64,000 nucleotides of DNA from assembly GCA_030698625.1 (NCBI GenBank), contig JAUYMS010000017.1, positions 12,962 through 76,961 of the forward strand, read 5' to 3'. The position numbers were made by a program, and so were the translations under genes. This DNA comes from Candidatus Omnitrophota bacterium. Its GTDB lineage: Bacteria > Omnitrophota > Omnitrophia > Omnitrophales > Aquincolibacteriaceae. Below, in pieces: positions 2,203-62,200 of this stretch (its first letter is position 1; every line of letters starts with the position of its first letter). Under the pieces are notes generated by a model. The model was given only the letters and a program-made list of their open reading frames with translations, ran no database searches and was not told where the DNA came from.

Positions 2203-5200
2203 CGCAGTGAGCTTCGAAGTCTAAATCAACAGGCAGCTCTCCTTGATCGTGGCGTCTTGGTTGACGAGGTCACCGGTGAAGTTTCTATTGCCGGTGAGTC
2301 ACTCGGGTTACTGTTCACGGATCGCGGATTGAAAAAGGCGCTGACCGCAACCGCCAATTCAGACGCGGTGAATATCGGGCTTTACGGTAAATGGTTAGCG
2401 GTTCACAGCGCGGCAGGAGAACGCTATACGCTGCAAAAATACAGCGCAGCTCGCGGCGAAGTGATAACCACCAACGCTGTCTATCTGAATAAAGGCGGAA
2501 ATGTCGACCGGGCCCTTTATTCGCCCAACCGAAGAGTTAAGCCGAGCGACGGTAATCGATATGTCGCACGCCAGGTCATCATCTCAGAGTTTGCTAAGGC
2601 GCGGGGGCTTTCCTTTGTGCCGCAGATCATAGATGTCAAGCCTGCCGACTCGACGGTCAGTGAAAACGGACTCATTCAGTTCGAGGATCGGAGTGCCGCC
2701 GAAGACTCACGCGATAAGGTCCTGTATGTGCGCAAGAACGCAGCCGGAATTCCCGCAGACGAGCAGATCGGAAAGTTGAATCCCGCCGAGCGGAGCCTGA
2801 TCTTGCTCGACGTGTTTCGTGCAGTCAAAAAGCTCTTTGACAGCGGTCTTGCGATCGAGGATCTAAAGTTCGACAATTTCCTGATTCGGAAGGATTATTT
2901 GGAAATTCTAAATCACAGAAAGGAGCAGCCGCTGGAGGAACCGGAAACTCTGAGTGTCATTCTTCATGACTTGGGAGGGGCGCTATTTGTTGACCCCGAT
3001 AGCCTGGTGCAATGGCTCGAAACGGAGCGTGCGGGCGGCGCTAAACATCCGCTGGCTGATTTGGTCGACGGGGGAAGGCGTTACAGTCTGGATGGGCGAG
3101 ACAACGGCACCATGCACGCAATTCATAAAAACCAGCAAACGAGTTTTCTGCAAGACGCCGGAAATCTAGTTCGCTTTGAAAGCAGGCTTGATAAAGCCTG
3201 GGCAGGAAACGCTTCGCGAAAGGCGCTTCTTGGTTATTTGGTCATTCATCAACTTGCGAAAACCGCGATCAGCTGGATGACCAAAAGCGTTGATCCGAAA
3301 GAATATTCGCGCCGTGCCTTCGCCGGGATGAGCCATCACGCATGGACTTTTAACAACATCATGCAGGACATCGAGGCTTTAACGCAGCCCGATGCATTCA
3401 GGGCGTTAGAATCCGACGATGTGCTTCAAGAGCGAATGAGCGAGACGGGTCCGCTGAGCAATGAATCTCGTCGGGAGCTCCAAGAGCGTCTTATTGAGCA
3501 GCAATTCGCGGCGCTCTACCAAAATTTAACCTGGATTCATTTGCTCATTCGTCAGGCGCGCCAGGAGACCACCGAGACGAAGACGGACTCGGGCGAAGTG
3601 GCAAGCAGTACGTTCGATACGCTCGATGCGTCCATCGAATCTACCGTGACTCCCGGCGGCGCAGGAATAACGGATGTCATGGAAGCCAAGGCCGAGCGCC
3701 CGACGTTGCCGCGCACAGAAGTGATGGATGCGCGCAGTCCCGTACGCTCTGAGCTGCGCATGGACCCGTTTGATAAGGAAAGCCTGACGGCAGAGGAAAT
3801 GGGCGCGCGCTTAAATGAAAAGGCCAGGGGTAATTCCATCGTCGCAAAGTTCAAGGATACGCTCTTAAGTGTCCAAAGAGATCTGCCATTGGGGCAGATG
3901 CTCAAAGAGATGGAGCAGCAAGTCATTCTGGAAATAGGATCGGGTGAGGATATGCAGCTGATCAACTTCTGGGTACGCGACTTGAAGTTCGATCCCGCGA
4001 AAATCTATGCCATTGAGCCTGCGCTAACCACAGGTTCGAATAACCCGCTTGGTCGAGAAAACTTTGCCGCAGGGCTTTTCCGAGAAGACTTGCCGGAATC
4101 ATGGAAATCGATCCGCTTTGATTGGATATTTGCGTACCACGTGGCCGAAGCATTGCATTCGGGTAAGCCCCTGGACGGTATTAATCATGAGGATTTGCAA
4201 ACGGCTTATGGCCTATTACGAACCGGGGGTCAGCTTACGGTACATCCGCTCGATTTTAATCTCGCTATGGACAAACTGATCCCCGAGTTTGGAATACCTT
4301 CCGGAATTCCACTACCCGCTGAAAGATCCGCTGTGGCAAAGTTTCTGGAAAGTGTGAATTTTGAATACCCATACCGTCCGCTGCTACATGGCGGCTTTAC
4401 TTTCGCCAAGGGTGTCCGTTCCGAGCTCCGCTACGAAGTTAGTGATTTGGTGGGAGGCGAGGCGAATCTCGAGTATCTGCGAAACATTGAAGCGGCGGTC
4501 AATCAGGATATGGAAGCGCCTGCTTACGCGCGACTTGCGATCTATCTTGCTTCGGGTGCGGACATTTCGACCGCGCTTCTTGCGACCGATGCGGACGAAT
4601 ACCTCTTTGTAGAGAGAAGACCCTTTATCAATCCCAACTGGACGTGGGATGAATCAACCGAAAAGCACCTGAATCGCTATGTGGAGGGTAAACAATTTTC
4701 CGATTACGGAATGACAGATGACATGGCAGCTGCGGGAGAGACGCGGAGTTATTTGCGCGGGGAATTAGAGGTTCTCGGGGCCGCAAATATTATCGTGCCT
4801 GGCGCAACCCGTGAGGACGGTATCTACGAGATCTTTTTCACCTGGCAGGGTAGAGAGAGGAAGATTACCTATGTCAGCGCGGAGTCAGAAGCGGAAAGAC
4901 GCGTACAAATCGCCCATGTGATGAAAGGGCGTAAAGGCGCAGATTATCTGATCGTGAAAGCCGGTGACTATGGAGCGAATGTGGGAGGCGTAACCACCAC
5001 GGAATTGAATGGCGTGATCAGCCGTTTCGTTGGGGGCGGGGGGCACCTGATTCTCGATTTTCCGCATCGCCGTAACGACACCGAACCTGTGTCCGTGAAA
5101 CAACCATTATCTGCGAAGTTCGGCTACGGTAAGGCAATGCTGATGCAGGACAGGGCTTTTGTTTACCGGATCGTTCTTTCACGGTCTCACCTACCGGATC

Positions 5201-8200
5201 TGAGCGGGGCGATGAGAACGGCAAGAGAGTGGTTGTGGCTGGCAGCACCATATGGCTTGGTCGGCAGCGGACACCGCATGGGCGGACCCGCGCGCTCCGA
5301 ACTGCGTGAAGGCGGGGAGCAGCTTGAAGATCTACAGATTGTACAAATGGTCAGGATGGATCGTGCGCTTACGAGACTGACCTCAGAGGACACAGAGTAC
5401 GGCAATGAATTGGGGATTACCCCTACCCAGGAAGGGGTAGGGTCTACTTACGTCGAAGGAGAAGTGCGTAGGTTCCTCGAATTTGCGGGCCAAAGTGATT
5501 TACGCGATCAATTGAGTTTCGATCCTTCGCTTGAGGGCGCCCGGGTTCATGTTTTTGGATTCGGAATGCAGGGCTATGAGATTCTGGCCTTTCTCCAGGA
5601 ACTGGGTGCCGGGCGTATCGATGCGGTCAGCGCGTTACCTTCAGACTTTCGCGGGCTTGACCGAACGTTGAAGGATAACGGTCTCCAAGACGCCCATGTC
5701 GACGGATATCTTTGGCAGGGGCAAAACTTGATTTCGGAACTCGCAGAACCTGAAAGTCAAGCCGATATTGTTTTTCTGGCGGATGTCGTGGATGAAAGAC
5801 ACTTCACCCCGGAAGAAATCAGAGCTATTGCCGAAAATCTCATCCGCTATGTTAAACCCGGAGGCCTGCTAATCTCGGCAGGGCAGGTTTACCGGCTTCA
5901 CGAGCTGGGTGCCATACATCCCGAAGACCCTATCGTCAGAATCGAGCACCCCGTTGAAACCCCTGAAGTCGCTTTCTTCTTAAAGGAAAAAACAGATCGC
6001 TCCGAGCTGCGTGCGGATAAAGCGGAGTTGGCGAAGTTAACGGCGGCGTTGGAGCGTGTGTATGCAGCCGTAGCGCTTGATGTTGACGGCACCTTGCTGG
6101 ACGGAACCGGCGACGGGTTCATGAAGAATATCCATCATATCATCGGCTTTCTCCGCGAAGGAGTCCCGGTGGCCATCGTTACCGGAAATAATGAAAGCAT
6201 GGTTAAGGCCATTTTGATTCGCACGATCAAGAATCTCCTCACCTCCGCGAAGGACTACAACATGACAGATGCCGATGCTGCCGCCGCTATGGAGAACCTT
6301 CATATCTATGTCTACAACGGGGCCAAGGGGTTCAATGCCGGAACAGGGGAAGTCTACTACAACAGGTTTTTTGACGAACTGACGGGGCACAGCACGCGCC
6401 ACTTCATCGAGGCAATCTCGAGGGACCCGGGTCTCAGAGATATTGCAGAAAACTCTATGGTTCAGGATGCGCGAGCCTATGGATTTCATTTCTTTCCTTA
6501 CGGCCAGACGCCAGACCTGGATGGATATGCCGACAGACTGAACAAATTTTTTGAGCGCGAGGGTTACCCGCTTGAGGCAAAGACGTCTTCGGTCGGTGTC
6601 GACGTTTTCCCGAAGGGTGTTGATAAGGGCTATGCGATCGCCGATCTTGCTTTGCGAATTGGTGCTGAGCCGAATCAGATCGCCAAGATCGCTGACCGCA
6701 TGCAAAAGGGCGGCAACGATGACGCGTTTAATGATGAAAGCAGTTTTGCGGTAAAGTCTTATGATGAAGATAATCCGAGGCAGATTTCTATGGTTAAGGC
6801 GGTCGAACTCACCGGGGCGGCAGCTACCGGCTATCTGCTGGAACGCTTGAAAATAAAGGGCCGCGCCGACCGATCGGAGCTGCGGACCGAAGACGTGCAG
6901 ATTCTGGATGTCGTCTTCGATCCTGAAACGGGGGCCTATGTTTCGCGGGCGGAACTCGATAGGCGGTCCCGGGAAGAAGCGGGGCGGTCGCGCGAAGCGG
7001 CGATCATTGCAAAGGCGGCAGAGCCGCGCACACCGCTCCAGACCGCCGGAAAATTGCTGGATGTCGCGGGATTTGCTTTTATGGTTCTCGGGGCTAACCT
7101 CTTTACGGCGGGCATTGTTGCGGCCCTCCTGTTTAATATTACGTCGGTCATCGGGATTGTTCTCGTAACGTTGGGAATCGCAACTCTTGCGGTGGTCGTG
7201 GGCGAAAGCACCTTTGTCGGCCTTCCGTATCTATTCGGACGTTACGATTTTGCGAAGCTGGTCGGAATCAGCAATGAAGAGGCGGTAGATCGCGCCGAAC
7301 AGGCGTTTGTCGATGTTAAAGAAACGGCCTTGACGAAGGAAGACTGGCATGTACTCGGCGGCTTGCGTCATGTCGGGGAACCGCGCGGCTTCTTCCGTAT
7401 TGCCTATGACATCATTGAAGTGGTGGTAGGCAAAGGCGATACGGTCCATCCGGCTATTGCCTTCGGGCCGGTACTGCGTTATCAGACCGTGCGCCGATTA
7501 GGGCTTGGAAACGACTTTGACAGACTAATGCCGCGTTACATCAAGAATCTGTCGGGAGATCAACCGTCATTATTGGCGCGCTCTTTTTGGTGGGTTTACG
7601 GGGATTATGAGCTCTTGAAACGCGCTTATTCGTACGGCTACCTTTCTATCGTTCCTTTCTACGCGCTGCCGCACTTTCTCCTAAGCAGCACGCTCTTTCT
7701 GGCTTTGACTGCGCTCAGAATTCTTTCACTCCCGCTCACACTCAGGGGCGGTATCAAGGCGTTCCTTGAAAGACTGAGCATGATGAAAGCTTATGCTGCA
7801 ATTACCCTGCTTTACCTCTCAACCGCGGCGGAATCTATGACGGATAAAACCGTGACAAACGAATTGCCCGATGCGATTACGGTCGGTAAGATGACGGTTG
7901 AGGGCCGAGCGCGGTCTGAATTAAGAGATGATGTCGAAGAGGCTATAGCGCAATGGGCGGCAGGCAAGGAGGTCGAACTCTTGCAAACAGTCTCTGTCGA
8001 CGGATCCGAATTCCGATTTGTGCACCGAGCACTTCCCGTCATGGATGCGTATCCGGGTATGCGTGAGACCATCGAGGTTTATGCGGGGCAGACCCGTATC
8101 GGCGGCATTGTCTTTCGCGTGAGGAGTTCGGGGGTTTGGCGCGACACGCTGATCGGCGGCCCGCTGACGGGCGTCGATGACGCCCTTGATGTGGAGGCTT

Positions 8201-11200
8201 TATACCGTGAACGTTATGAAGGCATTGGAAGAACACTGCTTGCGCTTGTGGTCCTTTTAACCCACGCGCGCGGGATTCCGAAAATCAAAGCGGCCAAGCA
8301 GTTGAATATGCAGCAGTATGAAGATCTGGGCTTCCACTATTCCCCTTCGGTGGATGAATATGTGGCCGACTTGACCCATTTACGCGACGACGTGCCGGGA
8401 CGGGCCGAAGGTGCGGTAGGTATCGTGAAGCGCTCCGAGCTGCGCGATGATGAAATGAGCGGCCTTGTTACCGTTCCAGAAGATAATCCTTACGAGACAA
8501 CTTATGCGGCTCGGCCCACTTTTAGCCAGGCCTTTCCGGACTCAAGTCAATTGATCAGAGAACTTGATACCGTTTCCGTCGGGTCCTTTATGTGGTCCGC
8601 TGGAGTTATTGAGAACACGGAGCAGAATGAATCCGTGACGATATTTGATAATGCCATCGCACTGGCGTTAAGCCTTGCGGCGATCGGGGTACTGTCCTTT
8701 TTCTGGTTGGGGATCTTGAGTTCGCCATCAGGCGTGGTTCACGAACTATTTAATGGACTGGTCGATGGCTACTTGTTCCGGATCTTGATGTCGCTTGCGA
8801 TCTCGACGATTCCCGTTGCCCTCTTGACGTTTATCACCGGGCTCTATTTTTCGGGAATACGGGTATCTCATAAGAAAGTCTTCGCTCAGATCCGGGACGA
8901 TCTCACAGAGAATCCGCCTGCAGGGAAGCTGAGATTGATCGGCCTGCTCTTGACCGCTTTAACCGACAGGAACCAAAATATTCGCAAAGCCGCTGAGAGC
9001 GAGCTGAACCGAATTACAAAGCAGGTTCCGAGCGTAAGACAGGCCTTAGACGCCGGCGTAGCAGGTATCGCTCGCTCCGAACTTCGCAGTGATGAAATGA
9101 GCACCGATGAGGTGCGCGAGCTTCTGAGCCGTGTCCCGCCACCGACACCGGTCTTTGAACAACGGGGAGGGGTCACAGAGGAAAATCCTTATGGGGTGCT
9201 TCTGGAGATATGGCCGACAGTGGGGCAGGCGTTTCCCGAGCTTTCGCAGTTACTTCGCGATCTGGATAATATTTCGGCGTTAGACCTTGAGTTCGCAATC
9301 GACGCTGTTGCTGAGACGACTAAGGGGAGATATGAAGGAAAAATCCATAATGTTTTTGTGGCGTGGCTCACGCTGCCAATGCTTTATCTGTTTTCTGTTG
9401 TGGGGGTGTTACTTTGGAGCGAAATGAGCACTTTGCCTCGGATAGCGAAAGATGCCGTGCGTGATTTCGTCGTTGACGGGCCTCTGTTGTGGCTTGCAGT
9501 CGCATCGTTTGCGACGGGTCTAATATTGGCGGTGAGAGTATTATTCTTTGCTGCGCCAAAGGGGTCTCATAAAGAAACCGTTTCGGGCATCAAAAAAAAC
9601 TTATATGAAAATCCCCTAGCGGGGAAACTCGAGGCGCTTCGCTTTCTTTGGAGTCACGCTAATCATAGGGATCAGAAGATTCGCGAAAGTGCGGGCAAAG
9701 CGCTCGAATTTGTAGCAAGTAAAGTCCCGAGTGTGAGACAGGCTTTAGATCGTGGCGTGCAGACCCCCACTCGGTCTGAATTAAGGACTGATGAGGAGCA
9801 AGTCTCGATATTCCTGGGGGCGCTCTTGAGATTAGCGGAGTCGGTGAATATTGAGAGACGCGACTCGCTTTCCGTGGCGCGCGTATTGGACGACGGAACG
9901 CGCCTCTATGAGTTACCTCTCGAAGTTTCTTACCTAAAATCGCGTAACATTCAGCCGGGGAATCCGGTTCCGCTCGAAGAGCTGACCCGTTTCTTTACGG
10001 CGCAGGGCATTGAGGATCTTTCAAATATCTCCTTAGGCTACGGTGCCTCGGAGCTGAAAGGTCCGGCACTCCTCGCAGTGGAAGACCGCGGCGGCGACTT
10101 GCAGTTAATCGGTCTGTCGTTTTACCGTTTCAGCAAAGACTCGGATGACTACGGTCTCGGACTCATCAGTTTTGGAAATGCTGACGATCTCATCCGTCAG
10201 TATCAAGGCTCGCTGGATTATCCCGGGAACCGCGCAGCCGGAATTATTACTCCTCAGGTGGAGTTCATTACGGACGGGATTTCCGTCGAAGCAACTTTTC
10301 AAGCTCAGGGAGCCCGACGGGAAGTCCTGATCAAGCGCCTCCGCTCCAAGGCAAAGATTCGTCAGGTAGATCTCCCGCGGCCGTCTCGCCACATGGCCCG
10401 CTCTGAGCTGCGGGCCGCAACGGTTAAAGGTAAAGATCAGGATTTCTTTGGCCGGGGTCTGGTCAAGGACCATTATGACACGGTAAGGCTTTTGGTGCCC
10501 GAACCGCTGATTCGCGATGTCGCCGGAGAAGGCTTCTTGATTCCGGAGCCGCTTCAGAACCCCGATTTGGTTATGGCGAGCACCGGTGCGCGCGAGTCAA
10601 ACCTCACATTTGCTGCTGATAAGGCCTTTTTCTCGGTAATTTTTAAATCAAAAGACGTCCACCGGCCTTTTCTTAAATCCGATTTCATCTATTACGGAAA
10701 AACGCTCGAGATCTTGCCGGGAACGATGCGGCCATTTCGCGAAGATCAGGAACGAACCGACATTGTCGCGGCGGACAGGACGTTTGCATGGTGGTTCCGG
10801 CATAACGTCGTCCCTTTTGCGCAGGCGCTCGGCTATGAAAAGATCGGGATCACGATCGTGAAAGGCCTCTCTAAGCGTATCAGTCAGTCCACGCTCAGGG
10901 AACTTGGCTTCCGTGAGCCCCGGATAGGAGGGCGCGCGATCTGGATTTACGATCTAAAGCCGGAGCAGCAAGCGTCGCGTTCCGAACTGGGCGTCACACC
11001 GGATCCGCTTAAAGCGCTTCGGCGCCCGGCCCTCCGCCAGTTTATCCGTGATCTTTTAGTGAACAACTACAGCAGGTTCCTTCCGGAATTTTTTCAAACG
11101 AAACCGCAGGGCCCGTATGTGGATATCGAAGCCTGGGTAGACGGTATTCTTCAAGCCGGCGCGGACTTCAGCGGGGATCCGGTTGCCGCGGCGAGGTTTT

Positions 11201-13536: not shown

Positions 13537-13554
13537 TAGGCCGCCAATAAAAAA

Positions 13555-13581
13555 GGCCGCTCTTTCCGAGCGGCCTTTTTT
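13555..13581. terminator. Rho-independent, probably bidirectional, terminator downstream of giant gene 1
   Basis: GGCCGCTC-tttcc-GAGCGGCC is a perfect 8-bp GC stem with a 5-nt loop, followed by TTTTTT and preceded by AAAAAA. It is 19 nt after the TAA stop at 13534-13536, and the flanking genes are convergent. Confidence 0.7.
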
Positions 13582-13596
13582 ATGCATTTAAAGGGC

Positions 13597-13626
13597 AGTA
13601 GGGGCACCGCGCGCTGTGCCCCTACT
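13597..13626. terminator. GC-rich 11-bp inverted repeat (AGTAGGGGCAC-N8-GTGCCCCTACT); possible terminator for the minus-strand M24 peptidase gene
   Basis: Perfect 11-bp arms with an 8-nt loop in the convergent intergenic region. Only a weak U-tract on the minus strand. Confidence 0.3.
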
Positions 13627-13759
13627 TTCAGGTCCACGTGGAACTGGGCACGTGAACCTCTGGGATACTTTTATTTCCGCGACCTAATTTTAGTATAGCA
13701 CACACTTTTTTTTGTGCAAAAAATTTCACGAAAAAAATGAAAATAATTTCGACTATTAT

Positions 13760-14896
13760 TTAGATTTCTAAAAATTTCGGCGCGCGTGTTAAATTGATGC
13801 ATCCTTTTTTAGTAATGACCACTACATCTTCTAAACGAACGCCGCCGATGCCCTTATAATAGAGTCCGGGTTCAACCGTAACGACATTACCTGCTTTCAT
13901 AATGTCGCCGCCCGGGCTAACGCGCGGCTCTTCATGAATATCCAGTCCCAAACCGTGGCCGGTCCCGTGGAAGAAGCCCTGCATGCGGCCGTTCATGACT
14001 CCCGTGGTGAATCCCAGTGCTTCAAAGCGCTTGTGAATGGCGTTGTGCACGTCTCCGGAGTTAATCCCTTCACGCAACATAGAAAATCCTATGTCTTGTC
14101 CTTCCCGAACGGCCGCATAGATTTTCTTTAGTTTGGGCGAGGCCTTACCACGCACGACCGTACGGGTAAAGTCGGCAAAATAGCGGCTCGCAGAGTCTCG
14201 CGGAAAGATATCCATGATCAGTGATTGATTGGCGTAGATGGGGCCCGACCCTTCATTGTGAGGATCAACGGCATGTTTGCCGCAGGCAACGATCGAATGG
14301 CTGGCGATAAAGCCCGATTCCATCAGTGAGACATTAATGACCTGTTTGAGGCGTTCAGAGGTAAGGATTTTGCCCTGATAGTAGAGTTTTCCGCGCCTAA
14401 TGAGCGACTTACGCAGGACGGCAATAGCTTTAGCGACGGCCTTTTCGGTGTGCCGAATGGCATTACGGATATACCTGATTTCGGCAGGGGTTTTGACCAG
14501 ACGGCGCGTGAAAAAAGGGTCGGGCCTGACCTGGATTCGCAGCCGGCGCTTCCTAAGGAGATCTGCGTATTCTAAGGGGAAATTGCCGGGAACCGTCAGC
14601 GATTTGACCCGGCGGGATTTCACGAATTCTTCGATGATATCCAGATACCCCGGTTTGCGCTGATACTTACGCACAAAGTCTTTCCTAAGCGCAGAAATGG
14701 AGAAAACGCGGTCAACTTTGGCTTGGGAACGGGCGCGATCGACTTCCAGATCGCTCATGAGGAGATATTTCTTACCGCGTATGACTAAATAAGCAAACGC
14801 GTCGGGCGCAATGAAGCGGGTGGCATAATACATGTTAGCATCCTGCTCGCTTGACGCAATAATTAGAATATTTTCAGATTTTGAAGTCTTCTTCAT
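13760..14896 (-). CDS. M24-family metallopeptidase (Xaa-Pro aminopeptidase/prolidase-like)
   Basis: 378 aa with the pita-bread fold signature FHGTGHGLGLDIHEEP, plus VEPGLYY and GVRLED metal-ligand blocks. Confidence 0.85.
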   Translation of the reverse strand: MKKTSKSENILIIASSEQDANMYYATRFIAPDAFAYLVIRGKKYLLMSDLEVDRARSQAKVDRVFSISALRKDFVRKYQRKPGYLDIIEEFVKSRRVKSLTVPGNFPLEYADLLRKRRLRIQVRPDPFFTRRLVKTPAEIRYIRNAIRHTEKAVAKAIAVLRKSLIRRGKLYYQGKILTSERLKQVINVSLMESGFIASHSIVACGKHAVDPHNEGSGPIYANQSLIMDIFPRDSASRYFADFTRTVVRGKASPKLKKIYAAVREGQDIGFSMLREGINSGDVHNAIHKRFEALGFTTGVMNGRMQGFFHGTGHGLGLDIHEEPRVSPGGDIMKAGNVVTVEPGLYYKGIGGVRLEDVVVITKKGCINLTRAPKFLEI

Positions 14897-14923: not shown

Positions 14924-14964
14924 TGTAAAGCCTTAGCATCACGAAGACAAGGAGTTCATCGAAC

Positions 14965-15279: not shown

Positions 15280-15302
15280 GAAAGCAGATAAACTCCAAAA
15301 CT

Positions 15303-19224: not shown

Positions 19225-19225
19225 C

Positions 19226-50253: not shown

Positions 50254-53200
50254 CGTTCGGAACTGCGGGATCAACCCGTACCTACCGATGCCGTTGAAGA
50301 CCACCTTATTAAACCTGTCCTGAATCGCCTGCAGGCCTCGCATCCGGATGTGGCCGCGAACCTAAAATTGAATATTACTTTTGAAGGAGAAGCGAATATT
50401 TTTTGGGCAAAAAACATGACGAAGCCGGTTGCGATTTACAGTGAGGTCCTCGATATTGGCCCGAGGACCGCCTCGCTCGCCATTGATAGCCGCCTGAGGA
50501 GTGCTTTTATCGAGGCGAGCAACAGCGGAAATCCTCTCTTTGCAGCTGCAGCTGAGGATGCCCTGCTACTGCTCGTGTTGAGAGAAGCGATCGCCTTAAA
50601 CAGTCCCCACGTATCGGATACCCTCAACTTGCCTGTGGCGATCGCTTTCACTTCCTTTCTCGAACAAAGTATGAGCTTTAAAGAATTGAGCAGCCGGCTG
50701 GCTTTAGAACATGTGTCTGATTGGGAAGATTATTTCAAGCAAGTGATAGGAATTCTGGATGCGGCGGCCCCGGAGTTTCGTCTTGCGACTTTACATCGAT
50801 TGTGGATGGAGCAGGCAGCCGGACATCAGACACTGGGAGACATAGACGAGATCATTAACTTCGTCAGTAAAGAAGGCGGTGTCGACATGGGAAGCGATGT
50901 CGTCACGATGACGGTCTCAGAAGGCCTGGCAAGCGCTTCTGCGAACAGAAGGGCCGTGCTCGAATCGCGTAAAAGAATTCTGCTCAGAGAACTCGCGGCC
51001 ATGCAACAGGGGCCTGCGCGGTTCCGAGGAGTCGGTTCTCTGGTTCCGTGGGACCTTCCGGCCGAGGATGGGTATAACCTGGCCGGGGAACCCCAGGGCC
51101 TGTTTTCTCAGGACGGAAAGTATGTCGCCCTCGGTCTGCGCTATGAGCAAGGAGACTCGGGGCTTTCCGGCGTTAGCGATGGTGATCTGGTCACCGAAGG
51201 GGCGAGCAACGGCATCATGAACCAAGTGGTGCTTTACGGCGTTTTGCATGATGCACAAAGCCATATCGTAGACGATGTGCGGGAGTATCGAACGATTCCG
51301 GCGGAAGCACTAACGCGCTTTGCGGAGATCACCGGTCTTGTTATGTCATCTGACAATCAACTCTTGGTCGTCTCCGGTCCTGCGCGCGACGGGGGTAAGA
51401 CTCTCGTTTCCGTTTTTAATATCAGCGGAAAATTGCAACTCAAAGACGGTCAGGCGGTTGATGGTGAGGTCTACGATGAACTCAGAACTTTGGAATTCGA
51501 TGAGACGCCTGATTTTGTCGAGATCGCCGCCGATAACTATGCTCTCTTTGTCGGCCTCGGTAAAGAGCTCAGACGTTATGAATTTATCATGGACGAAGCC
51601 GAGATCAGCGGTTTGAAGGCACCGGTTATCGGTAAGACGGCAACCTATGAGGTTAAGGCGGCGGCGGAGATCCCCGAGGCCGTTCCGCTTCTCGCGCGGC
51701 TAAAATTCGTCGAGGGGAAGAGCCCGGAGCTTTCACTGCGGCACGACGGGAATGTGGCCGAAGCCATGATTCAAATGCTGAGTAGCATTCCGATTGCTGC
51801 GCTTTCGGACGGCAGTGCCGTGCTTGCTGTTTCTGCGAGCAAGGCGCTCATGATGGGACTTCAAGCAGAAACGGTCGGCTCCTTGGCTGTCGCGGAGGCG
51901 ATTCAGGCCCGGGTCCGGGTCATCGAAACCGAGATCGCGGCAATTGATGCGCCTCAGCGCTCGGAGCTCAGGACGGCGGATTTTGATCCCGAAAAGCACC
52001 CTGCGACGATCGAAATCACCTCCTATTACACCTCCCGCGATCATTTGCGTATGGCCTTGGCCATCGGAAATGCCGAGCTCTACACCCAAGCGCTCGGCGA
52101 GTCTATTCACTTTGCCAAAAAGGCTATGGATTTAATCGATCACCGCGGAGAAGTGCAAACCATTGTCAGTTACCTCAGGACCAAACAGGATGTGCCCTTT
52201 CAGCGCGACACAATCGGCGATACCTTTGAGATCACACGAGTGCAGGAAGACAAATTTTCCCGTGAGGAGCAGGAGATGATCGAAGTCGAAACCCAGAAAT
52301 TTCTCAAGGCCCTTGGGTTCCAAGGCAGTGTCGCCGAGGATCTGGCGCGCGAAATCATGCTTGTGAGTTATCCTTTGAGCCTCGCGAACATGATGCCCCC
52401 TACCATTGAGGGTGCGGAGTTTCAGCCGGAAATGACGCGTGAAATCGGCAAGAGTTTGCATCAATTTGTGTTTGCGGAATCCCTAACTTTGGGCGGCGCC
52501 GTCGTCGTTAACCCCTCCCTTGCCAAAGATATCACCATTCAGATTCTGCAAAAGAACGATCCGATTGCTTTCAAAGGGTCCTTTCTTCATGAGGTCGTCC
52601 ACTTTCTGGCGCTTAAGAATGCGCTTCCCTTCGATGTGAGCCGCGAGCTTGTGACGCAGGCAATCACGACCGCCGTTTTTCTTACGGAGGCGGGCAGCCT
52701 GGAGCCCATTCTTTCGCAGATCCCCGAAGACATGCAGGAGTGGCGAATTCTCTATGAAACCGTCGTGAGTTGGGGCGAGACCGCTGCCGAACAGGGGCAT
52801 CGCATCAAGCGGCCGGAAGAACTCGATTCGATGGTGCGTGATTTTATTGAAACCCGCGTCCCGGAGATCATGAATATGCCTTATGCGAAATACAATGACT
52901 TTGTCGATCGTTTGAGCGGTGTCTATCTGGGCGCTTTTGCCGCCAAGACGAAGGCCCTGGATCCTAAAACGAATCTTTATAAATTCATCGTCGACTACGG
53001 CATTCGCCACCTGCCGCGCGTGAGGAACAATGCGTTTACCCGCAGCCTGACGCAGCGCGACCACGCCTTTATTCAAGAAGTCATGAAAACGCTTTCGGCG
53101 GTTGCACAGGTTACGATTCCCGACGGCCGCATTACTTTCAAAGAGCAGTCGATGAAGGAAACGCAGGAAAGAGGGCTCGGCCGTATGGTCTATGATGCTG

Positions 53201-56200
53201 ATAAGCATGTCATCTACTACTTGCCGTGGGATATCGTGGAGTTCGGCAAAGACGCCTCCGTCGGACATCTGCTCCAGGAAATCTTTCGCTATCAGCATAC
53301 CTACGACGGGGAAATAGAAGAGGCCTATGACCATACCGCATTTCGTCTGCTCTTTAGCGTTGCCGAAAGCGCCCGTGTGGTGGCGCTCGGTTTGGCCGAG
53401 TTTCCGGAGCGCCTGATCGACATCGAGGCCTTTTATGAGCGGAAGCTCAGGATTTTGGACTTGGAAATAGAAAAGGACCGTATGGCCGAACAGCCGAAAT
53501 TTGTGCAATACGTCGAGGGGCTCTTTTATGCCCTGGCAAAATCCGGCGATCCGGAGAACCCCGAATGGGATCCGAGAATTGTGACGGACATTGTAAAGGA
53601 AGCTCTGAATGATACTTTTGCGGTGGTCGCCGAAGCCATGGCCGCCGAAGGGCCGACGGCGGGCCGTTATTTTTACGAAGTCATACGCGACCAGGTGTGG
53701 CCCGTCGTTGAAAGACTTCTCGAGCTGGACAAAAAGGAAGCGCTCGAGCAGGAACTCGAAAATCAGACCATGAGTCAGATGATCGAGAACGGAGATTTTG
53801 AAATCGTCGAAGCCCCGCCTTCGGAAGGGGAGCCGAGCCCGATGCCGTTACCCCCGGGCGCAAAACTGAAGATCAACATATCCCCGGGGTCCACAGCCGG
53901 TGCGATCGATATGAAAGATCTCAGTCCCGAGGCTCGAGCCGCACTTGAAGAGGCGATGAAGAAGTTTATGGAAAATATGGATGACGAGCAGAAGAAAAAA
54001 TTCGAGGAAGCGGCCCGCCAAGCCTTGGAAAATTCTCTGGAAGATGCCGTCGACGGCATGGCGCCCATTACTTCCGGCATGGACGGAGAATTGCCGGGGC
54101 AGGGCAAATTCAAGCCCGGCCGGGGATCTCCTCAAGTGCCCGGGCGCGGCGATGTGTCGACGGACGCCCTCGGCGAGCTCTATCAGGATCTCGAAGAGGC
54201 GGAGGATCAAGCCAATAGAATCAGTCAGCAAGCGGATGCGATCGAAGCCGAGGCGGCCAGAGTTATCCAAGAGGCGCTTGATGCGGCACGGCAGGCTGCG
54301 GAGATCGATCGAGAAGGGGAAGGCGATAAAGCAAAAGCCCTCGAGATGGAAAAGGCCCTCGCCGGCTTGGCGCAACAGCTTAAGAACCTGCGTGCTGAAG
54401 CGAACCGGTTTCACGATATGGCCGACGATGTGGAAGCAAAAATCGATGACGTTCGCGACGACCCGGATCTCGATCAGGATCAAGTCCAAGAAATACGTGA
54501 CCGCGTGGATGACCTCCAAGGAAAGGCCCTTGAGATTGACGATGATGCGGCCGGTGCCGACAAGGACGGTCAGCAGGCCGTCAAGAGCGGCGACGAGATG
54601 AAGGACATGATGGAACGCGATCCCGACCGAACCAACTTTATTAAAGGACGCGCCAAGAGAGTTCAAGAGACACTGGAGGACGCGAAAGGGCGCCTCGATG
54701 AGGTGCAGAAAGATGCTCAGGAAGCCGCAGCGCAATCCGGCGATCTGAAAGGCGAAACCCGCGCGATGCGCCAGGGAGTTGTTCAGAATGCCCCCATGGA
54801 AGTGGAGGAAAGTCCGGTGCCGGATATATCGGTGGATGACGGCCTAGAAGATGCCCCGGGTGAAGGGGGTGTCGGCGCAGGCGGCGGAGATCCGGGGGGA
54901 CACATCAAAATCAAGATGCCGAACAGGAGCCGGCCTGGTAAGAAAAGGAGACGTAAGCAAGCGCAAAAGAAGGGCCTACAACCCGAAAAGGTCAGAAAAC
55001 ACACGGTCGATCCGCGCGTCGCGGAATCACTCCGGGAACTTTTGCAGGACGAGGCCTTTCAGGCGCCTGAAAAGCCTTTTGACATTGACGACTTTTATAC
55101 CGCGACAGAGCCCGGAGATGTGAGCCCGGACCAACGCCACATCTATGACATGATTCGCAATCTCTCACGCTCACATGAAGCCACCATTAGGGACGCTATT
55201 CTCAGTGTCCTCGACGAGCTTGAGAGCACCGAAGATATCCCCCGTCAGAAAAAGGGGCGCCTCGACGGGCGCCGTCTTGCGGTGGTCGACAGCGGTATCA
55301 AGGACATCAATAAACGTAAAGTGACACCGGATGCTCCCGTAGTCCGCGTTTCAATTCTGATCGACGTGTCGGGGAGTATGTTTTCGGATGTCAATAACCT
55401 GCAGGTCATCCCGCCCGTTAGTGACGAGTATCTCGAGCAGGCCCTAAAGACAAAAAACAGAATCACGAATGCCGTTCGCACCGCACTCCTTTTCATGGAG
55501 GCATTTCGCAACGAAGAGCGCGTCGAGCTCGAGATCGGGCTCTTTGCGGCCAGGCAAAAAATCATCCTTCGTTTCGGCGAGGAGATCACGGATGCGAAGG
55601 CTTATGAAGTGATACGCACTATTTTAAATCACGGTTTGGGCGGTGATAATACCGATTTGGCAGGTCTTCAGATGATGGTTAACAGCCAGCGTGAACGGGA
55701 GGCCGAAATGGGGCCGGCCTCTAAGATCGTGGTCATTATCGCCGACGGCGGAATTAATTATACGGACGCCCTAGGCTTGCAGACCACGATGCAAAACAAT
55801 ACGGATATGGCATTTCTACCGCGCGGCATCGGCCCGGCATCGGCAAATGTTAAAGGGGCATACGCCCCTTTCGGTAAAGAAGTTGATGATGTGACAAAAC
55901 TGGCCAAAGGGCTTGGCGACGATGTGCTGAACGAGATTGAAAGGCTTCGGCCGACGGGCGGTGACGACCGGTCGGAATTAAGGGTGATGCATCCGGTGAT
56001 TGTGCGGCCCGAGAGGTTCGAGACAGACAATTTTAAAGTTGTGCGGGAAGGTAAAGACGAATTTCTGGTCGTCAAGGGAGGGCGATACCCGACTTTTAAG
56101 GCAAAAGTGGACAAGGGCGGCAGAAATGTGCCGGATGAGGATTTGTATGAGACTGAGACCAACGTCGCCGACGTCGTACAGATTATCAAGCATGTACGAA

Positions 56201-59200
56201 ACCAGGACCTGGATCGCAGTCCGCTTTATATCGAAGGTGAAGCAGGAACGGCGAAGAACAAGAAGGTCTACTATGCCGCAAAACTATTACGCAAAGCCAC
56301 GCGATACATGGCGATGCACGATGACATTCACGATGACGACCTGACGGAAAGACGCGGCGTGAATGAAAAGGAAGAAGGTAAGACCGACTGGATCCCTTCG
56401 CCGTTAGTCGAGGCGATGATGAACGGAGATTGGATTATTCTCGATGAGGTCAACAAGGCGAAGACAACGGTTCTTCAGAAACTGAACCAGATCATTCAAT
56501 CCCGCCGCGTGGTACTCCACGACGGAACAGTGGTGACGGCCAAGCCGGGATTTGCGGTCATCATGATGGCCAATCCGCCGCCGAGTTCCGGGGATGCAAA
56601 GGTTTACAGCGTACAAAAGATCTCAGCCGAGATCATGGACCGCCTCCGTTACATGAAGATCGACTACCTGCCGCGCCACGAAGAACTGCAGTTATTGTTC
56701 CATATCCTCATGAAGAAGCGCGGCTTAAAGACCGCAAGTTCGATCCCCAACGTAGACAAAGAAATGGTGCGGAAATTAGTGGACGCGGCGCGTATCATTC
56801 GCGAGAGATATGAGGATGTCGATCCGGCAACCAACTTGAGCCGCGGTCGGGGAAAAAAAGTGGCCCGTCCGTTTTCGACACGCGCATTGGTCAATATCGT
56901 CGAGCATATTGCGGCATATCCCGAAGAAAGAGACCGGATTCGTTCGGTCATCAAACGCTTTTATTCGTATGAGTGGGAAAAGGACGATCAGGTCAGAAAG
57001 GTCGAAGAGGCCTTGAACAACAAGCTGCCGCGTTTTGACGAGCCGTATGTGTTTTCCGACGGCGATTTGATGGGGCCGAAGTATTCGACAAACGCCGAGG
57101 GAAAGCGCGTGTTGGAATTTGCAGGCGTCCAGGTGGAACTCGGGGAACATGCGCCGCTCGGCATGGACGATGTCCCCCTTGAGATGCGCCTGACATGGAC
57201 TTCGAAAAACCTGGAGTATCTGCGCCACATGATGATGGACCTAAGGGCGGGCAATCACATGCTGTTTATCGGTGAGGCCGGCACGGGAAAAGACACGATC
57301 GCAGAATACGTGACTTACTTGACGCATGGCCCGGTGGTGGAAACCTTCGGGGTGACGAAGAATGCAATGGCCGAGGACTTTATCGCCTATGTCGGTTTGG
57401 GCGAGGGTGAGAAGGTCGCCAAAGACGGGTTGGTCCTTGCCGTGGGTAAAAATGAAACAGGTCTCGTGCCGTCGTATGTGGTGCGCGCCATGTTGGCCGG
57501 ACGGCCGGTGATCTTGAGTGAAATCAACAAAGGGAAACCGGAGGTATTCGCGGCACTCAATAATATTTTGGAATACGGGTGGATCGATCTGGCCAACGGC
57601 CGTCGTGTCCATGCCGAGCCCGGTTTTGTGATTATCGGTACGATGAATCCTCCGAAACGGCAGTACATGGGGAACTACGGGCTCTCGGGAGAATTTATCG
57701 ACCGGTTCTCGACCTATAAATTTGATTATCTGGAGAGGGATCAGGAAGTCGATATCCTGGAAGATTTTAATCAGTATATCAGGACGCTTCCGGACCGGAA
57801 TTTCTACCGGTTAAAACGGGAGTTCATCGAGAAAATTACCGATATGGTGCGGATCCTGCGCAGGAGATACGACGACAACGAACTGCCGCACCCGGTGTCG
57901 ATGCGTGCCCTCAAACGGCTGATCGTGACGTTTGCCGAGTATCCTGAAATCTATAAGGCCGAGAAGAAAGATACCGAAAAACAGACGCCGCTCGAGAAGG
58001 CGATCCTCAGCTCCATTTTCTTCCACGACCCGGTTCATCAGGAAGAGGTGTTGAAGGCGATGAGGGCTGCCAATGTGAAGGGGCTGCGCGACATTGTGGA
58101 GTTTGATGTCTCGACCGGTTCGCAGGTCCTGGATGCCGCTTTTCAGCAATTGCGCTCGAATCTCGGAAGCATCGACTCCATGATCCGCGCCCTGGCCGAG
58201 TTTGACCGGTTGATTGAAGACAATAAGGATAAAATCCCTCCGGCGATTTTCAAGAAGGCACAGCCGGCGTACCGCCATTTGGTGGCTAATGAATTTCCGC
58301 CGAAGTGGGGCGAAAGCCAGCTAGCCGACGCGGTGGTGGTGCATGTGCTCCAGCGCCTTGGCGGTGAATTAGCACTACCGGTACTGCCGCCAATTAACCG
58401 CGAAGTGCTGCGTACGGGGCCACTTGATCTCGCGGCGCATCCGGAATTCGGGGTGAGGTTTATCGGCGACATGGTGCAGGGTATTGCCGAAGTTACAGGT
58501 CAGAAGCAGGACGCCAGGTTCCTGAAGATCGCAGGTAAGGTGTTTTTGGGGTTGAGGAAGGGTTTTTCGGCCAAACAGATCGTGCGGGCCTTCGAACGTG
58601 ACGGCCTGAAACTTTACGGGACCGAGCGTACCGGGGATAGCAAGGGTGGGGAATACTTCGCGGCATTCTTCGGTTTGGCCAAGGATGTGCAGGATGCGGT
58701 GCGCAGCAATACGGCGATTACCGAGGTGGCCAATTACGAGGCACGCATTAAAGTGCTCGGGTTATCTCAGGACTGGGTGGATGTATTCGCCAAGCTGAGC
58801 CGTCCGGCGGTGAACCCGGTTTTGGCGAAGACCTGGCGCGATCAATTGATTACGGCCGTTGATCTCTCCAAACGCGACCGAATAGTCCGTCTTGCGATTC
58901 TCCTGACGCTTCAGATTCTCTTTAAGAATAGCGACCGCGTCTTTATGGATCAAGTGGTCCGTGAACGTATCAAGATTCTCTCGCGGTCCGAATTGCGGTC
59001 TGACGAAGACTCACAGCCCCAACAGCATCTTTCGATTTGGCCCGTTCAAGGGAAGCCGGCTCCGTCATCGGGCTTCGTTCCGGTAGACGAAATTGACGTC
59101 AAGCTGGTCCTATCGGCTGCCCTGAAGGAACTTCGCACTCAACATTTTGCTCTTTATCAAAACCTCTGGACGGAGATCAATGCCGAATGGGGTCCGAATT

Positions 59201-62200
59201 TTCTGTGGGTCGAAGGGCTGCCGGCGCCGGCCATGGTGTACGCACATGAACTGGACGGTGGCGATCGCGCGACGGTTTTTGCGCTTGATGTCGGCCTCAG
59301 AGGCTATCTTGAGAAGGCTTACTCGGAGAAAAACGAAAAGCGCAAAGAAGCGGCGACGGAATTCCTGCTTATGCTCTTAATCGGGGAAGCGGCTTCGCTT
59401 GAGGGACGTCCTATGAAGGAAACCCGCACGCCGGATTTAAAAAATGATTTACTCGCCGCGCTTACTGTTGCTAAGCACTTCTACAGTGTTCCGTCTCAGG
59501 CGCCAGTGCAGCAATCCGCTCTTTTTGCCGTGGTCAAAGAAGGAAACCGGTTTGTCTTTAAGCGAAGCGACGGACCCGCCATTGATTTGTCGCGGGGGCT
59601 CGAGGCGGTAAACGGGGTCCAGTTTACGGTCAACGAAGGCGGAGAGCCGCGGGTCCATTTTCACGGATCAGGCCAGGGCGTTTGGGGTCTCTATGACCAG
59701 TTTGGGAGAAAAGTCGGCCCCTTTGAACAGATCGTGCCGTGGCCTGTTGAATATCCGGTTTCTATGCGTGATGGGAAGGGCGGTATCCAAACCTATTTCT
59801 GGGTATTGCAGGATGGGCAATGGATTTTGTACAACCAGGACGGCGTCATCGGCGACGGCCTAAACGACTTAAAAAATACCTTTGCTCACGTTGAAAGGCC
59901 GAGACTCTATGAGAACGAGAACGGCGATCCGTATATCCTTTTTATAGGGCAACCGGCGGGGAGTAACTGGGGCCTCTATTCGGTAACGCAATCCGAAGGT
60001 CAGGGACCTGTGGTGACTCTTTTTCAAGGTGGTTTTGACAGCCGGCGCCATAGGGACTTTGATGAGAAGGAATCCGGTGTCGGTTATCCACAGCCACTTC
60101 GCCTGCCGGACGGCAGACGCAGTCTCGTCGTGCAGAACAATCTCCAACTGATCTATCGAGGGGCCGCTCTCGGTGAAGAGGCGATCTTTCACAATCGAAA
60201 AACCGTTAAAGCCGGCTTTGAAGAAACCGGGGAACCCCACCCTGCTGCGGATTCAAAAGGCAGGATTTACACCTTCTTCCGGGCTAAAGAAAAGAACCCC
60301 GCGGAACCCAATGAGAAAGGGTTATGGCGTATTTACAATAATGCGGTCCCTGTGTCGGCGCCGCTGGCTGAGATCGGCGAGCCGGAGCCCTTTTTTGACA
60401 AACAGGAAGGAGCGCATGCACTCTATAAAGGAAGGGCTGCCGGAGACGATGCGCCCTGGCACCTTTATCAAGACGGCATGCCCCTAACCAAAGCTTATGA
60501 AGAAATCGGCGATGTACGGGTCGTTGTGACTCCGGATAAAGAGGTGGCGATTATTTTTGCCGCGAGGACTTCGGAATCGTGGGGTGTCTATCAGCAGAGT
60601 CCCGGCGCGGAGCCCGGTACGGAGGTCCTTCATGAAGACGGTTTTAGCAATATCCGCCACTTGACCGTTGCCGTTGATGAGCGGGGCACCCGGCGTATCT
60701 ACTTCACCTCATTGAATGATACGACCTGGGCCGCTCATGTTGACTTTCGCGCTGTGTGGCATGGTCCCGAGGAACCCTCCGCGGCGCGGGTGATGCACAC
60801 CGATGACGGAAATGTGGATTTCTATTTTGAAGCGGCATATTCGGGGCACAGGGCCCTATTTAACGGAGACGGAGAGATCGCAAAATCATTCGGCACGCTG
60901 CTGGATGCCGTCGTGGCCTTTGAAGCCGTGAACTTTGGACGCGAGGAAGGTGCCGTCCAAAAACTGAAACCCGAAGAGCGGGGCAAAAGAAGGCGGGATT
61001 TGCTGGCGGCTCTTCTTAAAGAATTAGGCGAACGGCCCGCGGCAGCGCATATGACCCAGTTACTCCAGGTGTTACGCCGCTTCAGCGGCGAGTCTGTAAG
61101 CGGTGAGGCCGGCATCACGGCGCTCACCGACCATCTTTTCACTCAGCCGGCATATCAGAAAGCATACCAGCGTACCGGGCAGGATGTCATGGCGACTATT
61201 CAAGAGGTTGTCGCTGAGAACCGGAAACGCTCTGAACTCCGATCAGACGGCCCGAAGGAGCCGAAGATTGCGCCTGTCGACGAAATTAATATCGAAATGC
61301 TGCGAGGGGCGCTGGATGTATTGAAGGCCAAGAACCCTGATGTCTATGCCGATATCGACCGTGCCGTCTCTTCGCAGTACGGTAAAAGTTACTTATGGGT
61401 GCAGAACATTCCGGGCATTGCGGCCCTCTATACGGACACCCTGGATGACGGCGAAGTGTATTCTTCGCTCGGGATCAACGTCGCGTGGAGGGGACTCATC
61501 GAAGCGGTGTACGCGTCGTTGAAAGTAGACGCAATGAAGGACTTGGATTATTTCCTCTATCTCGTGCTGCTGCGCGAAGGCCGCAAGCTACGCGGCGGGG
61601 ATTTCAACGAGACGATTACACCGAATCCCGCTCTGGAATTGAGGGCGTTCCTCAGCGCCGCAGACGGGTACTTCACATTGGGTTCCGGAGCGACGGAAAG
61701 GCATATCGTCATGGCTCAGGTCCATGCGGAAAACGGAAAACACTTTATTCGTACGAGCGACGGTCAAACCCTTCAAGTTGAATACAACCTGCAATTGGAC
61801 GACATCAAAAATCTTATGATGGCGATCGATGATGTCGGGAATCCGCATCTTTTTTACACGGGCCAGCGTCCCGACGGAAAAATGAGCCTTTATGACAGCA
61901 ATGAGGCATTAGCCGAGGCATATGATGAGATCAAATTTGCGGCCGGCCCCATCGACCGAACGGGATTCGTACAGGCCTTTTATTTCGGCAAGAGGGACGG
62001 GAAGTGGGCCCTGTTCCGGAACAAAGAACATTTGATCTCGGGGCTTGAGGGTGTCGGGGCTGCACGCATTGCCCTCGATAAACGAGGGGATACGCATCTC
62101 TTTTTTACCGCATTGAAGGGCGGCGTTTGGCGGCTCTATCGTGATGGAGAGCTCTACTTCAAGGATGCCGAAGAGGAGCTCGCCGATACCGATGAGCCGG

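Follow-up and report, generated by a model that had tools for sequence, protein, structure and literature searches.

We analysed a stretch of 64,000 nucleotides from a Candidatus Omnitrophota bacterium (assembly GCA_030698625.1, contig JAUYMS010000017.1, positions 12,962–76,961 of the forward strand), referred to below as the window and numbered from its first letter. It carries three giant genes on the + strand, g1, g2 and g3, whose products are punctuated by the recurrent pentapeptide Arg-Ser-Glu-Leu-Arg (RSELR), which an earlier note, made from the letters alone, had read as a polyprotein processing site. Gene g1 (445–13536) encodes 4363 residues and starts with a TTG codon, 3′ of a GGAGG-like Shine–Dalgarno sequence; its product is identical to the database protein P0002 and comprises an N-terminal module (N-module), 12 RSELR-bounded cargo segments and a C-terminal module (C-module). 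Gene g2 (21986–48319) encodes 8777 residues laid out in the same order, with N-module, cargo segments and C-module. Gene g3 (48511–64000) continues past the end of the window; its complete protein, P0003, has 5493 residues, and this database match was the source of the GTG start codon at 48511. Seven ordinary genes lie between g1 and g2.

Distribution of RSELR and the cargo between its copies

A six-frame scan of the window found RSELR 31 times, in g1 (13 copies), g2 (13) and g3 (5), and neither in the other five frames nor in the seven ordinary genes. A sixth g3 copy lies beyond the window end, in the complete protein P0003. The positions listed in the earlier note all held, each of the 31 encoding R-S-E-L-R in the frame of its giant open reading frame (ORF), but its count of at least 33 was too high. 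From amino-acid composition 0.047 copies were expected (0.014 for g1, 0.024 for g2 and 0.009 for g3), far below one, as had been anticipated, and an origin by chance or composition was ruled out. Every other pentapeptide in the giants occurs at most three times, so that RSELR is not a by-product of internal repeats.

In g1 the copies lie at 2203–2217, immediately 3′ of the N-module, and then at 3745–3759 (with Met as the next residue), 4417–4431, 5293–5307, 5998–6012, 6871–6885, 7912–7926, 8431–8445, 9073–9087, 9772–9786, 10399–10413, 12007–12021 and 12535–12549, the last being followed by the C-module. The g2 series likewise begins immediately 3′ of the N-module, at 23981–23995, and continues at 27848–27862, 29936–29950, 32078–32092, 33758–33772, 34592–34606, 35480–35494, 37736–37750, 40025–40039, 42434–42448, 43586–43600, 46313–46327 and 47435–47449, again with the C-module behind the last copy. 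The five copies of g3 are at 50254–50268 (immediately 3′ of the N-module), 51958–51972, 55969–55983 (Val-Met next), 58984–58998 and 61228–61242; all 31 are on the + strand. The spacing ranges from 173 to 536 residues in g1, rather than the 170–350 first estimated, from 278 to 1289 residues in g2 and from 568 to 1337 residues in g3.

The five core residues are invariant and the preferences in the flanks weak. Ser, Ala or Thr follows at +1 in 21 of the 31 copies and Asp or Glu at +2 in 16, Pro precedes at −2 in eight, and no Lys or Arg stands at +1 or +2 in any of them; the consensus x-RSELR-[ASTD]-[DE]-[DE] proposed earlier was roughly right in character but weak. Two near-copies look like variant or decayed junctions. 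The first, RSEPR followed by ADE in g2 (25100–25114, +), lies 12 residues before a FabD-like acyltransferase domain and is probably a decayed or variant junction; the second, RSELG in g1 (10978–10992, +), lies within the 536-residue segment g1_s12 and is probably a decayed one.

Between the copies of the motif, the giants are concatenations of unrelated proteins. Domains recognized by Pfam and NCBIfam on the + strand include a Cof-type HAD hydrolase domain in g1 (6070–6696, residues 1876–2084) and a FabD-like acyltransferase in g2 (25151–25993, residues 1056–1336). Further along g2 lie a response-regulator receiver domain (34208–34465, residues 4075–4160), an HD-GYP domain (34856–35371, residues 4291–4462), a complete three-domain UDP-glucose/GDP-mannose dehydrogenase (37763–39109, residues 5260–5708) and a PPDK_N domain with a phosphoenolpyruvate (PEP)-utilising mobile domain (43841–44815, residues 7286–7610), while g3 carries a VWA domain (55354–55794) and a MoxR/dynein-type AAA_5 ATPase domain (56227–56643). 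The giants also hold membrane segments. One ORF encodes several units that elsewhere are independent proteins.

When the 34 segments bounded by the motif were compared all against all, homology emerged in few cases only. The three first segments, which are the N-modules, display 30–33% identity over ~540 residues. Among the cargo, the membrane units g1_s9 and g1_s10 (8431–9771) are paralogous, with 33% identity, and segments g3_s2, g3_s5 and g3_s6 (50254–64000) share a homologous N-terminal region that begins right at the motif. A modular megasynthase of the non-ribosomal peptide synthetase or polyketide synthase type was ruled out: internal repetition was absent, and the Pfam matches are sparse and mutually unrelated.

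Domain boundaries, N-termini and the C-module

The position of the motif relative to folded domains was examined in the window together with three motif-rich relatives. None of the 70 motif copies fell within the 17 Pfam domain envelopes, an outcome with p ~4e-4 under random placement as estimated from the envelope coverage, and burial of the motif inside folded domains, which would have spoken against a processing site, was not observed. Domains whose profile match starts at position 1–3 begin 4, 7, 9, 19 and 21 residues after a copy, the closest being the UDP-glucose dehydrogenase of g2 behind the copy at 37736–37750; the HAD domain of g1 starts 19 residues after the copy at 5998–6012. Upstream domains, on the other side, end at least 37 residues before the next copy. 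Moreover, the flanks of the motif are significantly less hydrophobic than random positions, and in one relative (L040) RSEVR alternates with successive receiver domains. A conserved short motif, a candidate cleavage site, is found at unit junctions. It does not mark every domain junction, as had been claimed, since some segments hold several domains, for example the UDP-glucose dehydrogenase and ~300 further residues.

The receiver–RSELR–HD-GYP–RSELR stretch of g2 has database homologs in RpfG-type proteins of ~355 residues that cover both domains. Its first RSELR (34592–34606) falls at the end of the last helix of the receiver, in the variable inter-domain linker, and its second (35480–35494) 10–25 residues beyond the ends of the stand-alone homologs. 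In an AlphaFold model of this stretch, based on the alignment with these homologs, the first copy lies within the long linker helix that joins receiver and HD-GYP, at a predicted local distance difference test (pLDDT) value of ~60–67, and the second at a pLDDT below 50, with both domain cores in the 80s–90s. Both copies are in low-confidence linker.

An indication of what happens at the motif comes from the residues that follow it. Signals for twin-arginine translocation (Tat) have the consensus (S/T)RRxFLK and work when they stand at the free N-terminus of a protein that has folded in the cytoplasm. Nine internal Tat-like signals ([x]RRxF[hydrophobic] with a hydrophobic stretch behind it) were found in the giants of the family that shares the N-module, and six of these begin 1–5 residues after a copy of the motif, where 0.33 were expected (p=1.7e-7); a seventh comes after the variant RPEIR. 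Examples are RSELR|AMSRRGFL in the window and RAETR|AMGRRDFL, RSEVR|TSTRRKFL and RSEVR|MDRRQFL. The signal peptide in the window, MSRRGFLERVMKTAVLASLSLPSLPSG (12025–12105, +), starts two residues after the RSELR of g1 at 12007–12021.

Likewise, hydrophobic 14-mers within 36 residues downstream of the motif are three-fold enriched (5.2% vs 1.7%, p=5e-7) and upstream of it they are depleted, and Met at +1 is two-fold enriched (23 of 586 copies). Enrichment of this kind directly behind the motif would be expected only if the next residue turned into a free N-terminus. The simplest reading of these data is a cut immediately behind the second Arg, made in the cytoplasm, where proteins with Tat signals fold. 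Most copies have no Met at +1, and internal initiation is for this reason not a general mechanism. The evidence from Tat signals and N-termini is the best separator of cleavage from a passive linker. An unusual combination was seen at the start of segment g2_s5 (32078–32290), where the hydrophobic helix VGAVVVGTAAAGTAGYYLL lies ~12 residues after RSELR, with a second Tat-like stretch, GRREFMQTSTAVMASM, behind it.

At the opposite end of the chains, the C-modules of g1 (12550–13533, +; ~330 residues) and g2 (47450–48316, +; ~290 residues) end in ISSAA (13519–13533) and LAAAA (48302–48316), respectively. At least eight other family giants have a homolog of the g1 C-module at their extreme C-terminus. 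Furthermore, in 109 of 150 family proteins an amphipathic helix leads into a final -AA or -SA, the remainder looking like assembly fragments, and the last motif copy is usually 270–330 residues from the C-terminus. The C-modules (~300 residues) form several sequence subfamilies with only the -[AS]A terminus in common; the g1 type covers 27 of 107 C-termini, and those of g2 and g3 are of other types. This terminus is reminiscent of ssrA-like or C-terminal-recognition signals.

The N-module and its family

All three giants share an N-module of ~540 residues, which precedes the first RSELR (g1, 445–2202; g2, 21986–23980; g3, 48511–50253; all +). In g1 it consists of an N-terminal hydrophobic helix and a domain modelled with the TIKI fold. 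No sequence match was found for the N-modules of the three window giants in Pfam, NCBIfam or PDB profiles, and a profile comparison (hhalign) with YbaP of E. coli gave no match and was uninformative. Screening 39 diverse N-modules against Pfam at a lax threshold returned PF04187 (ChaN, of the Tiki superfamily) as the sole recurrent family, in 6 of the 39 with a best E-value of 2.8e-4.

The AlphaFold2 model, which was built from a shallow alignment of 4 sequences, predicts an α/β fold with a parallel β-sheet core flanked by helices, and an all-helical insert of ~300 residues between the two halves of the core. A fold search with this model gave, with scores in brackets, BcR135 (Ere-like; 9.6), EreC (9.4), HopBA1 (9.4), a TraB family protein (9.0), ChaN (8.9), BcR136 (8.6), RRSP (7.8) and PMT (6.7), and Foldseek independently ranked BcR135 and EreC first, weakly. 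These matches make up the TIKI superfamily as described with the RRSP structure (PMC6254334). The catalytic residues of that superfamily are a His-Glu pair (H85/E113 in Bcr135, H3902/E3930 in RRSP), together with an acidic residue at −2 from the first His, a conserved Arg (R4001 of RRSP) and another His (H4030). Both RRSP and Tiki act as site-specific endopeptidases, and the superfamily also has esterases, a haem binder and inactive members (PMC6254334).

The same arrangement is evident in the N-modules, of which 39 diverse examples share 15 invariant columns, among them two His, one Arg and several Glu. All three window N-modules have D-A-H with a Glu exactly 28 residues on, and an Arg with a His 28 residues on. 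In g1 these are D85-A-H87 (703–705), E115 (787–789), R466 (1840–1842) and H494 (1924–1926); in g2, H94 (22265–22267), E122 (22349–22351), R475 (23408–23410) and H503 (23492–23494); and in g3, H77 (48739–48741), E105 (48823–48825), R452 (49864–49866) and H480 (49948–49950), all on the + strand. The spacing of 28 between His and Glu equals that of Bcr135 and RRSP, and the spacing of 28 between Arg and His compares with 29 in RRSP. In the model the signature residues are placed at the C-terminal ends of the core strands. Judged by sequence, the N-modules of g1, g2 and g3 thus carry a putative TIKI catalytic signature, and as modelled the N-module has the TIKI/TraB/EreA/ChaN fold with the His-Glu…Arg-His signature of that superfamily. 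The analogy suggests the N-module, which heads each giant, as a candidate protease for the motif and as a possible identity for the "unknown protease" of the earlier note.

A profile search with the N-module across 1.84 billion cluster representatives, g1 and g3 themselves among them, found 8,966 proteins (4,753 at E<=1e-30). In these 8,966 representatives the N-module is always at the extreme N-terminus, and the host proteins reach ~7,800 residues. A scan of one genome per species gave 44 N-module loci, almost all in metagenome-assembled genomes (MAGs) of Candidatus Omnitrophota. A word-indexed search of 5.8 billion proteins found one family member, compared with the 8,966 found by exhaustive HMMER; giants of this kind are therefore easily overlooked by the faster tool.

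The motif extends across the family in the form R[SA]E.R, with 124 occurrences in the 44 loci where 5.0 were expected, and 579 against 21.9 in 150 family proteins; the enrichment in homologous giants of related genomes that had been proposed as a check was found. In the 150 proteins position 2 is Ser (444) or Ala (135), and position 4 is mostly Leu, Val, Met, Ala or Ile. When pentapeptides were ranked de novo, RSELR, RSEVR, RSEMR, RSEAR or RAExR came out on top in many relatives. The first copy stands directly after the N-module (median position 630), preceded by the low-confidence tail of the modelled N-module, and the median spacing is 256 residues. Ordinary-sized neighbour genes are not enriched in the motif, and the few long neighbour ORFs that bear it are further family members. 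The cargo, by comparison, is almost wholly different between related giants, the segments of the window having almost no homologs in other family giants; with so few cargo homologs, a test for shuffled, motif-bounded cassettes had little data.

The strictness of position 4 depends on the lineage. In the three giants of this genome, 32 of the 33 copies of R[SA]ExR are RSELR; elsewhere RSESR accounts for 9 of 9 copies in P0148 and RSEQR for 10 of 12 in P0144, and up to 15 variants occur in P0060.

Proposed processing of the giants, alternative readers and known systems

We consider it roughly an even chance (probability about 0.5) that the giants are self-processing polyproteins cut after the second Arg of the motif. 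The earlier reading of RSELR as a processing site is supported by a motif that is locked to the reading frame, spread across the family, placed outside domains and followed by residues that look like N-termini; from these patterns and the modelled N-module we infer cleavage itself, the scissile bond, the compartment and the N-module as the enzyme. The chain would consist of a membrane-tethered TIKI-fold hydrolase as N-module, variable and unrelated units, and a C-module ending in -[AS]A, with the recognition peptide R-S-E-L-R (R-[S/A]-E-x-R in the family at large) at every unit boundary. The N-module would process its own chain in cis and probably the cell's other giants in trans, cutting in the cytoplasm after the second Arg, with R-S-E-L-R as P5–P1 and a small residue at P1′. 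Each downstream unit would be freed with an N-terminus close to the native one, and RSELR would remain as a C-terminal tail on the product upstream.

Several observations weigh against this proposal. The variant of the motif follows the genome and not the lineage of the N-module: the three window N-modules are ~30% identical and use the same strict RSELR, whereas their closest relatives elsewhere use other variants. Two scenarios fit such tracking, namely N-modules of one cell that co-evolved for mutual processing in trans or a single unlinked reader. A number of low-GC relatives (L029, L032, L033, L036–L039, L043 and L045, including Ca. Omnitrophus magneticus) have the N-module without any R[SA]ExR, and k-mer enrichment in these relatives revealed no alternative recurrent short motif; either the site there is too degenerate for detection or the N-module functions independently of the motif. 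Moreover, the N-module also exists as a stand-alone protein, in ORFs of ~550–600 residues that end at a stop codon and carry no cargo (L027, L030 and L034, the first from a Planctomycetales-labelled MAG with a GC content of 0.67). The TIKI superfamily includes esterases (Ere), a haem binder (ChaN) and the inactive PMT alongside its proteases. The hydrophobic helix at the N-terminus could be an export signal that places the domain outside the cell, which would conflict with the cytoplasmic cutting argued by the Tat signals. In g2, RSELR splits a receiver from an HD-GYP domain (34208–35371) that elsewhere form one protein, and a cut at this site would part the regulator from its output domain. 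Finally, the proposal does not account for the codon bias at the first Arg and the Ser of the motif, which is described below.

Of the alternatives, the one we take most seriously, though we think it unlikely, is that the motif is a processing site whose reader is an unlinked protease of the cell, such as a serine or cysteine protease specific for Arg with its gene at another place in the genome, the N-module serving some other purpose as a membrane anchor, an esterase or another hydrolase. The boundary and N-terminus evidence applies equally to such an enzyme, and we keep it in consideration because the motif variant tracks the genome: one reader per genome would give uniform RSELR across three divergent paralogs. 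N-modules without motifs point the same way, as do the C39/S8 peptidases suggested for other Omnitrophota giants (West-Roberts et al.). However, no endopeptidase domain was detected in or next to the giants with Pfam/NCBIfam, the motif is confined to N-module proteins, and the complete catalytic signature is strictly conserved in 39 diverse N-modules.

Rather improbable, in our view, is the alternative raised in the earlier note, an uncleaved linker in a giant that stays intact; the motif would then be a peptide that a partner, the C-module or a chaperone docks to or recognizes, or a site of Ser or Arg modification. The location of the motif in linkers is consistent with it, and so is the copy between receiver and HD-GYP domains that normally form one working chain. 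It leaves unexplained, however, why Tat signals, hydrophobic stretches and Met cluster on the downstream side only, and it offers no role for the hydrolase signature of the N-module. Nor would a Tat signal be expected to work from a position thousands of residues inside a chain.

We give little weight to a constraint acting partly at the level of DNA or RNA, in which a core such as CGY-KCC-GAR would let cargo cassettes recombine or insert, or would mark RNA for processing, with the peptide as a by-product. Such an element might account for the codons of the first two residues: in the window the Ser codon is TCN in 30 of 31 copies (one AGY where 12.8 were expected) and the first Arg codon CGN in all 31 (no AGR, 6.5 expected), and among 124 sites in relatives (L002–L045) Ser is TCN in 79 of 82, with TCC favoured, Arg-1 prefers CGY and Ala at position 2 prefers GCC. 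The near-total difference in cargo between related giants, furthermore, implies frequent turnover of cassettes at the junctions. On the other hand, all 31 copies are in the ORF frame, and the opposite strand, the remaining frames and the intergenic stretches have none; codons for Glu, Leu and the last Arg match background usage, third positions and codons 3–5 vary freely, no conservation of flanking DNA was seen around the copies, and at position 4 the lineages differ in an amino-acid property. A DNA repeat as the main explanation is ruled out by the locked frame and the free third positions. The earlier contention that selection acts on the peptide rather than the DNA was mostly borne out, as the codons do vary, with the first two codons departing from it. 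Their bias may reflect a codon class frozen by strict purifying selection, a selective preference for accurate codons or some remaining constraint on the nucleotides, the first two of which would be expected to produce it without any nucleic-acid element, and TCN for Ser and GCN for Ala are one step apart, in line with the alternation of the two residues at position 2.

Slighter still is the prospect of a translational signal that needs no protease, either 2A-like skipping by the nascent peptide or termination-independent re-initiation. The frame-locked motif, the new N-termini behind it and the enrichment of Met at +1 would agree with such a signal, and in six to seven related loci a gene for an ABC-F-type ATPase lies directly upstream; ABC-F proteins are ribosome-associated factors. 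Nevertheless, Met at +1 in only 23 of 586 copies means that re-initiation is not general, the upstream flanks carry almost no information, and the window has no ABC-F gene. Known 2A signals need ~18 or more conserved upstream residues, and we know of no bacterial 2A analogue.

The remaining candidates can be dismissed: the only use of "RSELR" in the literature is as a conserved block, R(S/T)E(L/V)R, of alginate lyases of polysaccharide lyase family 7 (PL7), which were ruled out as the Q(I/V)H and YFKAG(V/I)YNQ blocks are absent after every copy and no alginate-lyase Pfam match occurs, and repeated modules were ruled out by unconserved flanks and the scarcity of mutually homologous segments.

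Among known systems, the MARTX (multifunctional autoprocessing repeats-in-toxin) toxins of Vibrio and its relatives resemble these giants in being very long, in joining several unrelated enzyme domains, in being cut in linkers and in having a built-in protease, as is proposed here. Their processing relies on a cysteine protease domain inside the chain, which cleaves behind Leu. One of their effectors, RRSP, is itself a TIKI-fold site-specific endopeptidase (PMC6254334). They differ in having no TIKI domain at the N-terminus as processor, and the motif of the present giants is a strict pentapeptide. The cargo is also unlike, toxins in MARTX but ordinary metabolic, regulatory and membrane proteins and Tat substrates in the window giants. 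Membership in the MARTX family was ruled out, no Peptidase_C80 or RTX-repeat Pfam match being present in the giants, and the resemblance is functional only.

Viral polyproteins, such as those processed by the potyvirus NIa protease (that of tobacco etch virus, TEV, included), picornavirus 3C and flavivirus NS2B-NS3, share with the giants a single ORF for many unrelated proteins, a short conserved junction motif with lineage-specific variants and a protease in the same chain, for which the N-module is a candidate here. The viral enzymes have a chymotrypsin-like fold, in contrast to the putative TIKI-fold protease in a cellular organism, and the Omnitrophota giants differ further by tens of junctions per protein, several giants per genome and a very high turnover of cargo. 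Within the TIKI superfamily (Tiki1/2, RRSP, TraB/PrgY/GumN, erythromycin esterases, ChaN and HopBA1), the N-module shares the predicted core and the D-x-H signature, and like Tiki, TraB and RRSP would be membrane-tethered. Apart from the weak PF04187 hits, no significant sequence-profile match to these members was found, and the ~300-residue helical insert and the kilobases of fused cargo set the N-module apart; no such substrate is known for any member.

Giant proteins of Omnitrophota have been described before. West-Roberts et al. (2023) reported a set of 'Dockerin-type'/Archaeovorins, asked whether they are cleaved, stated that information on cleavage points did not exist and that its lack blocked structure prediction of the pieces, and pointed to C39/S8 peptidase domains. 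A 2026 preprint described Omnitrophota giants as 'multi-enzyme metabolic clusters' (class 1), and as in that class many distinct Pfams tile the long polypeptides of the window with none dominating. Both sets overlap with the window giants in PPDK_N, HAD, AAA_5 and response-regulator domains, and one N-module family member carries dockerin, glycoamylase and CBM30 domains. Neither of the two preprints mentions R[SA]ExR, a TIKI-like N-module or the -[AS]A terminus. Full-text literature searches returned nothing on polyprotein processing in Omnitrophota, and no description of the motif in bacterial giants was found in the searchable literature, as the earlier note had supposed.

Somewhat short of an even chance, in our judgement, is the broader proposal of a phylum-wide strategy, by which operon-like sets of unrelated proteins, whether cytoplasmic, membrane or exported, would be made as single chains of 2,000–9,000+ residues and cut after R-[S/A]-E-x-R by an N-terminal TIKI-fold endopeptidase, with the position-4 specificity tuned per genome and common to all giants of a cell. 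If true, the motif would be a sequence rule for splitting giants computationally into their functional products, which could be applied to the ~9,000 family members known so far when they are annotated or their structures predicted. Whether Omnitrophota giants are cut or stay intact was an explicit open point (West-Roberts et al. 2023) and is now experimentally tractable, since a junction peptide, a candidate protease and a conserved C-terminal end are available for simple experiments. Confirmation would provide a cellular counterpart of viral polyprotein expression, a new class of substrate for the TIKI superfamily and a source of orthogonal site-specific proteases with differing position-4 specificities (RSELR, RSESR, RSEQR and others).

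Turning to the gene neighbourhood, a conserved dedicated protease or transporter beside the giants was looked for, and only the ABC-F-type ATPase recurs. Its gene, which encodes two ABC domains with ABC_tran_Xtn and ABC_tran_CTD and recurs in one clade, lies upstream of the giant on the same strand in L018, L019, L020, L024 and L040 (~300–400 nucleotides away) and also in L023 and L025. No secretion genes are among the window neighbours of the giants. The ordinary genes between g1 and g2 include those of an M24 (Xaa-Pro/creatinase-type) peptidase (13760–14896, −) and a gamma-glutamyltranspeptidase (17155–18687, +); their products are not endopeptidases, and a role for either in trimming processed products is speculation. 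The g2/g3 boundary (48319–48511) places two giants head to tail. Such tandems are frequent in the family, each giant ending in -[AS]A and the next N-module starting within ~100–200 nucleotides, and one relative (L031) has three giants in a row, at 3–5543, 5547–9782 and 9905–17821.

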